Shown here: in pieces, positions 25,756-46,689 of the stretch
Layout: every line of letters begins with the position of its first letter
How positions within the stretch are numbered: the first letter of the stretch is position 1
Sequence record: OR472545.1
Source of the DNA: Escherichia phage vB_EcoM_50EP
Reading direction: 5' to 3' (one strand)
DNA length: 50,636 nucleotides
Translations under genes and position numbers: made by a program
The notes under the pieces: model-generated
The model's database searches: none
Told to the model about the DNA's origin: nothing
Seen by the model: the letters and a program-made list of their open reading frames with translations, nothing else

Positions 25756-26484
25756 ATGATCGACTCAAACGACAAGGATACTCATGACGCATTCGTTAGC
25801 TTTGAGCAGATCGAGCGTGAAAATTTTGTTACTAATGCGCTTGTTCCTGGCAATGGTCATTACCAAGCGGTTAAGCCAGACACCTTCTATCAGGTAACTG
25901 GAAACAGATACGCAGGAAGTAAGACGCCTGACGCAGTGCGTGACCTTTGGGCCACTGATCGAGAAGTGATCTCATGGATGGAGTCGCGTTATGGGAAGTA
26001 TGACATTGACGCCGCCGCCAGCGCTAACAATGCTGTTTGCGAAAAGTTCTATAGCGAACAAGTGAACTGCCTAAAAATCTGGTGGGGTAGCAATAAGCAC
26101 ATCTGGCTTAATCCGCCGTACTCACATCCAGATCCTTTCGTGAAGAAAGCGATTGAGCAAATGGAGCACAACAATCAGATTGATATGTTGCTTCCTGGTG
26201 ATAACTCTACGGCATGGTTTGCCGAGGCCCGTCGCAACGCGGCTGAAATCATCTGGATTGAGACTGACATCACAGAGATTGACAGTCAGGAATATTGCCG
26301 GACGGGGCGGTTGGCATTCATCTCTGGACTGACCGGAAAGCCTGTCGATGGCAACAATAAAGGTAGCGTGATTTTTGTCATGCGAAAACTGAAAGAAGGC
26401 GAGACGCAGAAAACGACATACGTTAGCGTTGCCGATATTTGTCCTGGCGTAAGCCGCAAGAAACCACGTAAACGGAGTGTTTAA
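25756..26484 (+). CDS. dam: DNA N6-adenine methyltransferase (phage Dam family)
   Basis: NPPY motif (WLNPPYSHPD); about 240 aa as in T1-type Dam. Confidence 0.65.
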   Translation: MIDSNDKDTHDAFVSFEQIERENFVTNALVPGNGHYQAVKPDTFYQVTGNRYAGSKTPDAVRDLWATDREVISWMESRYGKYDIDAAASANNAVCEKFYSEQVNCLKIWWGSNKHIWLNPPYSHPDPFVKKAIEQMEHNNQIDMLLPGDNSTAWFAEARRNAAEIIWIETDITEIDSQEYCRTGRLAFISGLTGKPVDGNNKGSVIFVMRKLKEGETQKTTYVSVADICPGVSRKKPRKRSV

Positions 26485-30681: not shown

Positions 30682-32265
30682 TTACCCCAGCAGTCGCGGA
30701 TTAATGTAAATTTTATCACCAATCAGGCACGTATAGTTTTTCTCATCCAGCATAGGGATCAGATGGTCTTTGATGCGAGTCATTACACCAGCCTGGCCCT
30801 CGAATGGCTTAACCTTACGCGCCGCTTCATATAGGGATCGGACACCTACAACGCCTTTCCCGTTCTTGCCTTGCTTGATCAGGATGTCAATAAGCTTGTT
30901 CATCTCCGCATGGTCGCCAGCGTGACCAGCAGCGTTTGCAGATGACAGATAAGTTTTACTCAGTTCCTGGAACATAATTACAGCTTCTTGCATTGTATCA
31001 AGCTCAATCTCTCTGGACTTCTGCGGACTTCCGCCATTGGGATTAAACCAGTTACGCACAGTGTGAAGAACAGCCGCGATCCTGATAGCCTGCTTATCGA
31101 ACTTACCCAGCGCGCCGCGAAGCATTGTGTGTGAATACTTCCCGCCGTCCGCAAGGTGAGGTTCCATATCCTGACGCGCACGGTTGAGATATTTCATCGC
31201 CGACGTGCTCACTGTCAGGTTGACTTCGTGTTCGCTCATGATCTCATGGACCAGACGGAAGTAGTCCGCCTTGAGTCCTCCATCAATCGGCTCGTATGTT
31301 GATTCGCCTTTTTCGTCAACGAATACACGCTCGCCAAGGAATGACTTCTCACGCACAAGCAAGAAACGTTCTGACACACCGATACCACGCGCACCAGCAT
31401 TCATGATCGCGTTGATTGTTTCATCCTGTGCAATTACAGAGATGCAACCCATCGCAATAAAGCTCATGTTATTGTCTGCGTTCGCACGCGCGATAGATAC
31501 GTTACCAGCATCCCATGCTTTCAGCACAAGCTCGCTGTTCGTTTTCTTTGAGCCATCACCATAGGTCATGCCTAACAGTGAGTTTACGCTCGTCGCTTCA
31601 TCCGAGATCACAGAGAAGTTACCCTGGCGGTTGTTGATTCGCGCCAGACCTTCCGGCGTGGTGTCGGATACGGGGAATACGATGTCACAAAGGCGTTCCA
31701 GTTTTTCTTCCAGTTCTTCTTTTTCCTCAAACAGTGCCGCCATGTCGGACGGTGATTTTTCCTGCTTCATCTCCTTGGATAGAGCAGATAGTTTAGCCAT
31801 AATCTTCTTGCGGTCGCGCTTTCGGATCTCGTTGAGTCGTTCAGTCTCTGCGATCATCGGGGCCAGAGAAAGTGAGTTAATGGCTGATTTACCTGTCGAT
31901 GGTGGCTGACTGGTTACGACGTAAAGAGCGGTCGGCTGTTGTGTTCCGTGATACTCAACCGTAAATCGGCCCAGCATGGCGGCTGATATGCATCCGAGGA
32001 AATGCATGTAAGCGGACGACTCGGGGAACTGAACTGAACGAGCGGCATTGCTTGACAGCTTACCAACGACATCATAATCGTTACCAAGTGAGATAACCGG
32101 ATATTTGTCACCGCCTGAGTCAATTTCTGTTGGGGCTTTCCAGAATGATTGGCTCTGCCTGTATCCGTTCGCATTGATGGCAACGCGCAAAGGTGGCAGG
32201 TTATCGGCAGCGGCTACAGCCATTACCTGATCGATAGACAATTTATCTTCGTTAAAATCAAACAT
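30682..32265 (-). CDS. P-loop NTPase, unknown family (possible replication/primase-associated ATPase)
   Basis: Walker A-like PPSTGKS; 527 aa; N- and C-terminal ends shared with mini-paralog at 36693..37262. Confidence 0.5.
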   Translation of the reverse strand: MFDFNEDKLSIDQVMAVAAADNLPPLRVAINANGYRQSQSFWKAPTEIDSGGDKYPVISLGNDYDVVGKLSSNAARSVQFPESSAYMHFLGCISAAMLGRFTVEYHGTQQPTALYVVTSQPPSTGKSAINSLSLAPMIAETERLNEIRKRDRKKIMAKLSALSKEMKQEKSPSDMAALFEEKEELEEKLERLCDIVFPVSDTTPEGLARINNRQGNFSVISDEATSVNSLLGMTYGDGSKKTNSELVLKAWDAGNVSIARANADNNMSFIAMGCISVIAQDETINAIMNAGARGIGVSERFLLVREKSFLGERVFVDEKGESTYEPIDGGLKADYFRLVHEIMSEHEVNLTVSTSAMKYLNRARQDMEPHLADGGKYSHTMLRGALGKFDKQAIRIAAVLHTVRNWFNPNGGSPQKSREIELDTMQEAVIMFQELSKTYLSSANAAGHAGDHAEMNKLIDILIKQGKNGKGVVGVRSLYEAARKVKPFEGQAGVMTRIKDHLIPMLDEKNYTCLIGDKIYINPRLLG

Positions 32266-32936: not shown

Positions 32937-32979
32937 AATATACAGGAAAAGCCCCGAAGGGCTTTAGCAATTCGTGCTA
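32937..32979 (-). promoter_or_regulatory. TAGCAC-box promoter cassette (minus)
   Basis: rc: TAGCACGAATTGCTAAAG ... GCCCTTCGGGGC hairpin ... TATATT ... CATCGAAACGAAAC. Confidence 0.45.
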
Positions 32980-33489
32980 TCTTCCATGGTTTTCATGAAA
33001 ACCAAGCCTTGCATTGGCTGACATTCTCATGCATACAGCCTCAAACCAATCTTTTGACGTTCCGAGCTTTATATTTCTCCTTTTTCCACCATCCTTTATC
33101 TCAACCTGAGCCAGCCAAGTGTTTCTATCAGACCTCCACACAACGCCGCACACGCCGCTTTTGTTTAGTGGGCTTTTGCTGAAATTTCTACAATTTCCAG
33201 ATCTGGAAACAAGCCTGTGATTGCTGTCGGAATTGTCATCTCTTATGTGATTTATGTGATCAACCTCCATCCCCTCTGGTATCACGCCGTGCCTCATCTC
33301 CCAAATTATTCTATGATGAGGGTGGCATACTCCGTTAACCTCAGAATAAAGGTATCCATTCATTACATATCCTGCTAAATCGCCAGGTCTTATCTGATTA
33401 TTTCCTCTAATCCAAAAAAGCCTGTCATTCACTAGTTCAAAATGCTTTGTCCAGTCATTACTTATTGCTTTCATAAATCGCTCTCGCAA
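32977..33489 (-). mobile_element. HNH homing endonuclease with AP2-like DNA-binding domain
   Basis: HRIIWEMRHG ... VDHINHIRDDN ... N HNH pattern followed by GVCGVVW...W.A...GK AP2-like segment. Confidence 0.6.
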
Positions 33490-34126
33490 AACCTTCCGGT
33501 GTTAATGAGCGGAGTACCTTTGTCTTTGCAGACTTTCCGCCGCAGTATTTCCAGGCCCAGAAGAATCCAATGCTCTCAACTGGCTTTTTAATAGGTTCAA
33601 CAAATCCATTGCCACACCAAATGCAAGTCTTTTTATTGTAAGCATTACGAGTGGGCATTCTTGGGTGATAAACATCATCGTGATCAACGTAACCGCCATA
33701 ATCGCAAGGATTGAAATAGAAGTCAGGCTTACGCCACAGGCTTGACAGTTTGCCTACAGGATTCTCAACCATCCATGGGGCATTAAAGTGATTGCCGACT
33801 TCTTCGACTAACTTCGCGTTAGCCAGAGCATACGCCAGTTCATCTTCCCCGCGCTCATGCTGTGATCCAGACTGAGAGAACAGCGTGCAATCAGGAAAGC
33901 CGATAACCATTTGCGCCGGAGGCAGGCCGAGCAATTCACACTTATTGATGAAATCCTTGTCAATCCACATGTTGACGTAGTGGATGTTCTCATGCTTCAT
34001 CTTGATGTGATATTCGCCATGATTGCCGGAGTCCGCGTTGAAGCAGTAGACGGTGTGACCATCTTCCGCCCATGGGAGGCCAGCAATACCAGAACCGTCG
34101 AACAAGCAGTAAATTACCTTTTTCAT
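33458..34126 (-). CDS. putative DNA (cytosine-5) methyltransferase-like protein
   Basis: FDGSG (motif I-like), GFPDC..FSQSG (PC motif-like), ENPVG (ENV-like); short at 222 aa so uncertain. Confidence 0.4.
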   Translation of the reverse strand: MKKVIYCLFDGSGIAGLPWAEDGHTVYCFNADSGNHGEYHIKMKHENIHYVNMWIDKDFINKCELLGLPPAQMVIGFPDCTLFSQSGSQHERGEDELAYALANAKLVEEVGNHFNAPWMVENPVGKLSSLWRKPDFYFNPCDYGGYVDHDDVYHPRMPTRNAYNKKTCIWCGNGFVEPIKKPVESIGFFWAWKYCGGKSAKTKVLRSLTPEGFARAIYESNK

Positions 34127-34296
34127 TTCTTCTTTGCCTTCTCAATTGCTTTCTGTGTGATTTCAAAGCTGCTTTGTAGGTCGGATTCTGTTTTGCGGCT
34201 CATGTTTAGATCGCTTGCTGTAAGTCTATACCCTGGTCGCGAGATTCCCGCTACAACCTGCATATCACCACAATTCAAATCGGATGGCTTGAGCAT
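34123..34296 (-). CDS. small hypothetical protein (57 aa, below track threshold), translationally coupled to the methyltransferase-like gene
   Basis: manually translated; ATGA overlap at 34123-34126 and TAATG overlap at 34294-34298. Confidence 0.3.
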   Translation of the reverse strand: MLKPSDLNCGDMQVVAGISRPGYRLTASDLNMSRKTESDLQSSFEITQKAIEKAKKK

Positions 34297-34535
34297 TATT
34301 TCACCTCATCAAACGTTGCGATACCAGGGATAAACATTCCGACCTTCCAGCCTGCGATAGCAATCCAGCCAGAATCGTGCTTGTGCGGTCTCTCAGCGCC
34401 ATTAATCACCCATTCGTTCGGGATTGTCTTACCGTTAATGATTAGCGCCTCAGCGTCGTATACAGAGCCTTTTACGAACGGTGTCAAAACCTTCTTGTCG
34501 GTGCTGGTGATTACGTTAGTGCATTTTACTTTCAT
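34296..34535 (-). CDS. hypothetical protein
   Basis: 79-aa ORF in operon. Confidence 0.4.
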   Translation of the reverse strand: MKVKCTNVITSTDKKVLTPFVKGSVYDAEALIINGKTIPNEWVINGAERPHKHDSGWIAIAGWKVGMFIPGIATFDEVK

Positions 34536-46077: not shown

Positions 46078-46103
46078 AAGCATCCTTCGGGGTGCTTTTT
46101 TTA
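46078..46103 (+). terminator. rho-independent terminator
   Basis: AAGCATCC-TTCG-GGGTGCTT + T7. Confidence 0.6.
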
Positions 46104-46109
46104 TGCCTG

Positions 46110-46125
46110 CAATCTGGTATAATTC
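46110..46125 (+). promoter_or_regulatory. extended -10 promoter (TGGTATAAT) for packaging genes
   Basis: CAATCTGGTATAATTC upstream of terminase small subunit. Confidence 0.35.
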
Positions 46126-46152
46126 ATTCCTATTCAACAAGGGGAAACAACT

Positions 46153-46689
46153 ATGAAAGACGAAAACTTCACCAGTCACGCGAACGAGAAGGTTCGAATC
46201 GGTAACTTCAAAGAGCTATACAATAAAAAGTATGGCGACATTGCCAACCTGAACCATCGTCACCCAATGACGCCTGAGACTGTATTCAACCTTGCGGTTA
46301 AATATTTCTCATGGGCCGAGGATCAGGCAATTAAGGCAATCGAAACGGCGAGCTTCCAGGGCGTTGTCACTGAGAACCTAGTGCACAAGCCGCGAGTGTT
46401 CACGCTCAACGGCTTCCAGCTTTATTGCGGCGTTACCTCCGGTGCGATCCAAAGCTGGCGCGCGTCGCCTGGATTCTCTGAGGTAATGGAGTTCATCGAC
46501 TCAGTAATTATTGAACAGAAATATCAGTTAGCTGCGTCCAACCTTATCAACGCAGGATTCGTAGGCAAAGACATTGGTATCGACAAGGCGGCAGAAGTGA
46601 ACGTGCAGAACAACGTATCTGCTGGCGCGGTGTCCGTGACTACTGATGAATTTAAAGAAGCCGTTAAGGATATTTTGGGGGAATTATGA
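46153..46689 (+). CDS. terminase small subunit
   Basis: 178-aa ORF immediately upstream of and overlapping the large terminase. Confidence 0.55.
   Translation: MKDENFTSHANEKVRIGNFKELYNKKYGDIANLNHRHPMTPETVFNLAVKYFSWAEDQAIKAIETASFQGVVTENLVHKPRVFTLNGFQLYCGVTSGAIQSWRASPGFSEVMEFIDSVIIEQKYQLAASNLINAGFVGKDIGIDKAAEVNVQNNVSAGAVSVTTDEFKEAVKDILGEL

Follow-up and report, generated by a model that had tools for sequence, protein, structure and literature searches.

A putative HNH-AP2 homing gene probably inserted beside a stand-alone miniature Dcm-like methyltransferase gene in Escherichia phage vB_EcoM_50EP

In phage K42, a KarlJaspers-like member of the Drexlerviridae, four of four escapers from the retron Ec86/Eco1 damage the 711-bp dcm gene. 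The product of this gene, when expressed alone, is toxic in retron-carrying cells only, and mass spectrometry coupled to liquid chromatography (LC-MS) showed that 5-methylcytosine (5mC) is raised on multicopy single-stranded DNA (msDNA) in its presence. A C82A/E128A/K175A/K176A mutant of the enzyme is inert, and the authors treated the Lys-Lys pair as substrate-binding (10.1101/2023.08.16.553469, a preprint whose text we used and which was published as Wang et al., Cell Rep 2024, 43:114857). The term “HNH-AP2” has been used for a second kind of phage gene, the free-standing homing genes of T4-related and Xanthomonas phages (PMC2993671, PMC2248197). Here we describe a locus at which a Dcm-like gene and an HNH-AP2 gene adjoin. 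The window, i.e., the whole 50,636-nt stretch of DNA that was analysed, corresponds to the entire genome of Escherichia phage vB_EcoM_50EP (hereafter 50EP), a T1-like Drexlerviridae phage whose closest relatives are ESCO41 and CJ19 (genus Nouzillyvirus, ~93% identity). On its minus strand, a gene encoding a 222-amino-acid (aa) Dcm-like miniature cytosine-C5 DNA methyltransferase (C5-MTase; 33458..34126) is followed by a gene encoding a 165-aa HNH-AP2 protein, probably a free-standing homing endonuclease (32977..33474). We put at roughly 80% the probability that the locus is composed of a stand-alone Dcm-like C5-MTase gene and an independent, selfish HNH homing gene, the latter being a recently inserted neighbour, and not a functional partner, of the methylase. 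Both the methylase family and HNH-AP2 homing genes have already been described, and current understanding of them is not overturned by what follows.

Assignment of the 222-aa protein to the phage Dcm-like miniature C5-MTases is firm. A profile search against PHROGs placed the protein over its full length (residues 1-222) in phrog_757, “DNA methyltransferase”, with an E value of 6.6e-78, and in no family of non-methyltransferases, and the protein has the fold of a C5-MTase catalytic domain. An earlier note on this DNA had called the protein methyltransferase-like because of its FDGSG, PDC..FS.SG and ENP sequences, a reading that is borne out by these matches: the three sequences are true C5-MTase motifs I, IV and VI, which that note had said they resemble, and the four residues mutated in K42 Dcm (C82/E128/K175/K176) are conserved in the 50EP protein as C80/E121/K165/K166. 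Like K42 Dcm, the 50EP protein belongs to phrog_757, has the same motif I and is encoded at the same place, upstream of a DUF3987 helicase gene. For direct comparison, genes of the swan01/FritzSarasin type stood in for K42 dcm, to which we link them by gene length, residue numbering and phage group. The 711-bp gene of the Warwickvirus swan01 is 98.9% identical in DNA sequence to the gene of BASEL phage FritzSarasin, and its 236-aa product, counted from the MYKG start, has Cys82, Glu128, Lys175 and Lys176 exactly as in K42 Dcm. Over its full length the 50EP protein shares 45% identity with this stand-in, from which it differs in being shorter by 14 aa and in having FPDC in place of FPPC; the swan01 gene, too, lies upstream of the DUF3987 helicase gene. 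By homology, therefore, the 50EP protein is probably an active enzyme, and 5mC formation and retron triggering are predicted for it from the literature on this 45%-identical relative.

The arrangement of the motifs is consistent with this assignment. Motif I (FDGSG, residues 9-13) comes right after a predicted strand (residues 4-8); its DGSG is invariant in an alignment of 33 family members, and in a broader alignment of 44 sequences, where the consensus is FDxTG, it is not listed as invariant. Motif IV (FPDCTLFSQSG, residues 77-87) contains the catalytic Cys80, which is preceded by Asp in the 50EP protein and by Pro or Ser in other members. In an hhalign comparison of the family with E. coli Dcm, the segment GFPDCTLFSQSG was aligned with motif IV (GFPCQPFSLAG) at a probability of 1.7%, and because this alignment covered motif IV only, motifs VIII-X are not mappable by sequence. 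Motif VI (ENP, residues 121-123) forms the end of a predicted strand (residues 118-123) and is invariant in the 44 sequences, and the counterpart of motif VIII may be YNKKT (containing Lys165/166), ahead of a predicted strand (residues 167-172). Across the 44 members, which are 27-48% identical, the invariant residues are Cys80, Gly87, Glu121, Asn122, Pro123, Pro140, Tyr163, Lys165, Thr167, Trp170, Pro178 and Gly212, three of which (Y163, K165 and T167) lie within YNKKT. Just 55 residues remain beyond the motif VIII position, in proteins that are to be compared with solved bacterial enzymes of 320-388 aa, and this tail is strongly conserved (W170, G174, P178, R206, S207, T209 and P210). We infer that the tail is a built-in, compact recognition element that confers one specificity common to the family.

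The family is large and uniform in size. Homologues of the 222-aa protein form 904 clusters at 90% identity, nearly all of them 215-245 aa in length, and a representative search yielded 1,824 clusters at 50% identity. Members occur in 1,488 phage records, a number of which are annotated as “Dcm-like C5 cytosine methyltransferase”, and their phages include Drexlerviridae, several BASEL siphophages, 130-150-kb E. coli myophages (AlexBoehm) and RB49-like phages. To our knowledge, these proteins are among the shortest C5 DNA methyltransferases. The position upstream of the DUF3987 helicase gene is conserved for the Dcm-like gene, which in the closest phage records (KY619305, CJ19) is still listed as “hypothetical protein”. 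Our results suggest that it should be annotated as a Dcm-like C5 cytosine methyltransferase gene, and the HNH gene as a separate mobile element.

Several observations weigh against reading the 222-aa protein as an active DNA methylase that serves the phage. Compared with E. coli Dcm (472 aa), M.HhaI (327 aa), M.HaeIII (328 aa) and the PF00145 model, it is shorter by ~100 aa or more, and, in contrast to canonical bacterial C5-MTases, it has no QxRxR (the canonical motif VIII), no normal-sized, separate small/target-recognition domain and no recognisable GN..P motif X. The protein itself matches no Pfam or NCBIfam model and falls below the PF00145 threshold, and PDB sequence searches with phmmer and with a family profile returned only chance matches (E about 1). 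PF00145 is matched by 8 of 33 family members (E <= 1), over motifs I-IV, the best being P0038 with 27.3 bits against a cut-off of 22. In addition, the CCWGG specificity of K42 Dcm was assumed from that of the host Dcm and was probed via msDNA mutants only, in a dcm+ host (10.1101/2023.08.16.553469). The BASEL study saw no straightforward relation of restriction resistance to these methyltransferase genes, so the benefit of the Dcm-like gene to the phage is unproven.

A protein with a C5-MTase fold could, alternatively, have another role: it could be an RNA or transfer RNA (tRNA) m5C enzyme like DNMT2, could use another cofactor, as carboxymethyl-transferring relatives do, or could be an idle binder of DNA or S-adenosylmethionine (SAM). 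We consider such a role improbable, since the 5mC detected by LC-MS for the K42 homologue was in DNA and required Cys, Glu and Lys residues that are conserved (10.1101/2023.08.16.553469), these residues are invariant across the Dcm-like family, and the best structural matches of the 222-aa protein are DNA enzymes. The catalytic domains of DNMT3A and DNMT3B are 12-18% identical to the 50EP protein, which reflects a shared superfamily, and we claim no closer evolutionary link; DNMT3A and DNMT3B themselves are eukaryotic, CpG-specific enzymes that form oligomers and have regulatory domains.

The gene downstream of the methylase gene had been described in the earlier note as encoding an HNH-AP2 endonuclease, and both parts of that identity hold. 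The HNH domain passes the Pfam threshold (PF13392, 49 bits versus a cut-off of 24.8), and the AP2 part, which is below threshold by sequence (13.5 versus 33.3 bits), was confirmed by fold, the product matching I-HmuI and AP2. I-HmuI, the archetypal structure among phage HNH homing enzymes, is intron-encoded and differs from the 50EP protein in its C-terminal DNA-binding part. Closer in organisation are the phage HNH-AP2 homing genes: their products, like that of the 50EP gene, have an AP2-type DNA-binding domain behind an HNH_3 catalytic domain, and the genes share with the 50EP gene intergenic insertion, presence/absence polymorphism and a recoded flank. With GAGAG and a 6-nt spacer in front of it, the ATG at 33474 gives the 165-aa product annotated in GenBank for 50EP (P0271, 100% identical); from a mechanical TTG start at 33489, the product would be 170 aa long. 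The overlap with the methylase gene that was reported earlier therefore exists but is shorter than first stated, the 32 nt then given being those from the TTG start and the overlap from the ATG being 17 nt.

Comparison with the closest phages indicates that this gene is an insertion. It is absent from ESCO41 and CJ19, and alignment with ESCO41 defines an inserted segment of about 481 nt in 50EP (32977..33457, minus strand), which lies between the methylase stop codon and a hairpin (AAAGCCC-TTCG-GGGCTTT followed by a T run; 32947..32965, minus strand) that probably acts as intrinsic terminator for the early operon. Relatives without the HNH gene have the hairpin directly after the methylase stop codon. 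The junction after the methylase stop in CJ19 and ESCO41 reads ...AAATAG, then CAC(T)AATTGCTAAAGCCC, the stop codon being directly followed by CAC(T)AATTGCTAAAGCCCTTCGGGGCTTTT in both phages, and the HNH-less junction of CJ19 includes GCTCGCGCACTATATGAAAGTAACAAATAGCACTAATTGC. The 50EP junction reads ...AAGTAA, then TGACTGG...GATAG, then CACGAATTGCTAAAGCCC. The insert is single-copy, and its GC content is 42.4% versus 47.4% for the genome.

The flank of the insert is altered as well. The final 34 nt of the methylase gene (33458..33491, minus strand) are recoded by mostly synonymous changes: of 28 differences from the CJ19 methylase gene, 10 are located within the last 34 of 669 nt (hypergeometric P = 2e-7), as are 11 of the 74 differences from the ESCO41 gene (P = 5e-4), and the sole amino-acid change that results is I217L. 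Both the Shine-Dalgarno-like GAGAG and the ATG used by the HNH gene lie within the recoded tract, which we read as a co-conversion tract or as a target-site immunity change from a homing event. The closest homologue of the HNH protein is 44% identical, and relatives are encoded at unrelated loci, where they are flanked by helicase and VRR_NUC genes or have lysis genes nearby. Together, the absence of the gene from ESCO41 and CJ19, the recoded flank, the lower GC content and the location of relatives elsewhere indicate that a free-standing homing gene landed between the methylase gene and its terminator, and they suggest that the HNH enzyme is capable of homing. What speaks against this is that a search of 50,697 phage records did not yield a donor for the insertion, the HNH motif region alone matching, at 75-83%.

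These data also bear on the suggestion in the earlier note that the two genes form a nuclease/methylase pair. In such a functional unit, the HNH protein and the methylase would be a restriction-modification-like or addiction pair, or the nuclease would be guided or checked by the methylation mark. The two genes do overlap by 17 nt, are co-transcribed and have one common terminator, and one Dcm-like fragment is seemingly fused to an HNH_2 domain (P0227). However, the two closest phages, in which the methylase is 96-98% identical, lack the HNH gene, and no insertion is present at the methylase/terminator site in any of 12 other Dcm-like loci. Joint inheritance, the criterion for a restriction-modification pair, is thus not seen, the methylase being present without the HNH gene in ESCO41, in CJ19 and in those 12 loci. 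The relatives of the HNH gene that adjoin helicase/VRR_NUC or lysis genes have no methylase gene alongside, and 1,488 phage records contain a member of the methylase family, whereas the HNH protein has no relative above 44% identity. The recoded, homing-type flank and lower GC content point to a recent insertion. We conclude that the suggestion of a pair is not supported, and that a functional unit is very unlikely.

A 57-aa ORF of phrog_4548, a group whose function is not known (E 3.8e-13), precedes the methylase gene (34123..34296, minus strand). The three minus-strand ORFs lie where they had been placed earlier (34296..34123, 34126..33458 and an HNH end at 32977), and the ATGA junction between the first two is confirmed, the 57-aa ORF ending in AAG AAA TGA and the 222-aa ORF beginning with ATG AAA AAG. 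This 4-nt overlap is kept in ESCO41, CJ19 and ETEP102. The next junction upstream (TAATG at 34296) overlaps as well, indicating that tight chaining is the norm in this operon and is not peculiar to the 57-aa/222-aa pair. Translational coupling of the two ORFs, as proposed earlier, is plausible in that the ATGA is real, but such junctions are common in the operon and the coupling has no demonstrable functional meaning, given that the centre of the 57-aa ORF is not conserved and that the K42 enzyme is reportedly active alone. With the 52-aa orthologues of ESCO41, CJ19 and ETEP102, the 57-aa ORF has its first 8 and last ~19 residues in common; the central ~90 nt (within 34150-34270) are replaced by unrelated DNA, while the ends and the overlaps with neighbours are conserved, so that the centre looks like a small mosaic cassette within the gene. 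A frameshift as the source of the divergent centre was ruled out, because the DNA itself is replaced over ~90 nt. A tblastn search with the 57-aa ORF returned ESCO41 alone at E <= 1e-3.

M.AquI, a split methyltransferase, is the model for the remaining alternative, in which the 222-aa protein is a catalytic subunit and recognition resides in a separate subunit, possibly the 57-aa ORF. There is little chance that this is so, since K42 Dcm expressed from a plasmid alone was reported to be enough for 5mC formation and retron activation (10.1101/2023.08.16.553469), which makes the 57-aa ORF unlikely as a methylase subunit, and since phages that share 93% identity elsewhere differ in the centre of this ORF, where the sequence is replaced, swan01 has an unrelated ORF (22% identity) upstream of its methylase gene, and the segment after motif VIII is highly conserved in the 222-aa protein, as for a built-in recognition element.

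If the locus comprises a stand-alone methylase gene and an independent homing gene, the 222-aa enzyme would be a SAM-dependent C5-MTase made up solely of the catalytic domain. Motif I would bind the cofactor, Cys80 of FPDC would attack C6 of the flipped-out cytosine, and Glu121 of ENP would protonate N3, with a conserved stretch of ~30 residues after Lys165/166 taking the place of the usual large target-recognition domain. Expression of the gene, which lies just upstream of the DUF3987 helicase gene, would be from the early operon. The enzyme would methylate the DNA of the phage, with methylation of host DNA and of retron msDNA as a side effect. Methylation would most likely shield a fixed short motif from restriction, and the phage would be betrayed by the same activity where the host has retron Ec86/Eco1. 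Because the family is reported to be what this retron senses, 50EP is predicted to be Eco1-sensitive, with loss of the gene as an escape route. The HNH-AP2 gene, for its part, would have come to lie downstream of the methylase stop codon and upstream of the operon terminator, with a ribosome-binding site and a start codon of its own that it brought inside a synonymously recoded version of the last 34 nt of the methylase gene, and it would be co-transcribed with, and functionally unrelated to, that gene. A T1-type Dam (N6-adenine) methyltransferase is encoded at 25756..26484 on the plus strand (PF05869, E 3.7e-60, NPPY motif), so that the Dcm-like gene probably provides, as the earlier note had considered, a second DNA-modification activity beside Dam.

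A possible footprint of that activity was sought in restriction-site counts, with expected numbers taken from a maximal-order Markov model. Among genomes that have the Dcm-like gene, observed/expected counts were 1/24 for CCSGG, 128/139 for CCWGG and 231/295 for GATC in 50EP, 10/22, 112/129 and 177/267, respectively, in ESCO41, and 3/22, 132/123 and 304/305 in swan01; among genomes without it, the corresponding counts were 65/45, 83/100 and 235/300 in T1, and 20/15, 78/104 and 49/208 in AHP42. For 28 loci fetched via the adjacent helicase gene, the pooled counts of CCSGG, CCWGG and GATC were 9/70.0, 455/391.6 and 973/1027 in the 12 with the Dcm-like gene, and 74/92.0, 396/444.9 and 373/1071 in the 16 without it. 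Hence CCSGG (CCCGG/CCGGG), the most under-represented palindromic word in the 50EP genome, is nearly absent from carriers of the Dcm-like gene and is undepleted in non-carriers, and CCWGG is never depleted. GATC served as a positive control, being depleted ~3-fold where no Dam gene was seen and retained where Dam is common. The loci represent just three or four lineages, so the association of CCSGG loss with the gene is not independent evidence and may be phylogenetic.

The pattern is compatible with an enzyme that covers CCWGG but not CCSGG; a causal tie between the loss of CCSGG and the Dcm-like gene is unproven. We regard it as doubtful, though worth stating, that the target of the enzyme is not simply CCWGG and that the loss of CCSGG is possibly a footprint of its activity. 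In one version of this idea, the enzyme, given how small its recognition element is, may methylate CCNGG, and Cm5CGG at CCSGG sites may be attacked by McrA-type nucleases, with the result that these sites are purged; McrA prefers Y-5mC-G-R. In another version, methylation of CCWGG only, combined with site avoidance, may give immunity to all of the enterobacterial restriction enzymes that cut CCWGG, CCSGG or CCNGG. Were either version true, the family would be a tractable model for sequence reading without a recognition domain. How the 222-aa enzyme chooses its sites without such a domain, what the phage is protected from, and whether the purge of CCSGG has any connection with this are questions of modest interest.

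Shigella phage Sd1 (IMGVR_UViG_2974508417) is an exception among carriers: its Dcm-like gene is 84% identical to that of 50EP, and CCSGG is undepleted (5/5.3). GATC is strongly depleted in Sd1 (9/63), and no Dam gene was seen within the locus. Sd1 may have acquired the Dcm-like gene recently, in a Rogunavirus-like background. In 50EP, many 6-bp palindromes are scarce too (observed/expected: CTGCAG 1/11, CCGCGG 1/9, TCCGGA 3/24, AAGCTT 3/24, GGCGCC 3/16, GAATTC 2/9 and GATATC 3/13), as is RCCGGY (4/26). 50EP thus leans heavily on restriction-site avoidance, and the depletion of so many 6-bp palindromes argues against a broad-specificity methylase.

The Dcm-like gene and its neighbours belong to a minus-strand chain of tightly packed ORFs that consists of a 79-aa ORF (34535..34296), the 57-aa ORF, the 222-aa ORF and the HNH gene. 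The hairpin that follows is present in the predicted RNA fold, with a minimum free energy (MFE) of -14.9 kcal/mol over 51 nt (z = -1.9), and its fold and conservation point to a terminator; a consensus terminator scan did not flag it because the T-tail rule is unmet. Downstream of the hairpin are a 117-aa ORF and the gene for a 527-aa protein (30682-32265, minus strand), which is called “DNA helicase” in related records and whose Pfam match is to DUF3987 only (E 5.6e-39). This DUF3987 helicase gene is a conserved anchor that adjoins the Dcm-like gene across Drexlerviridae subfamilies. Phage T1, in which tblastn detected no Dcm-like gene, has an HNH endonuclease gene, ST8 (46085-46624), directly upstream of the orthologous helicase gene, ST9, and it seems that HNH genes recurrently land in the early-operon region of T1-like phages. 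In P0227 (348 aa), a partial Dcm-like N-terminal region is followed by an HNH_2 domain, and in phage L-h 1M a Dcm-like match (NC_073086.1, 44050-44739) is annotated as “putative HNH endonuclease”; HNH genes may have landed repeatedly in or beside the methylase gene, or these cases may be annotation errors or fusions.

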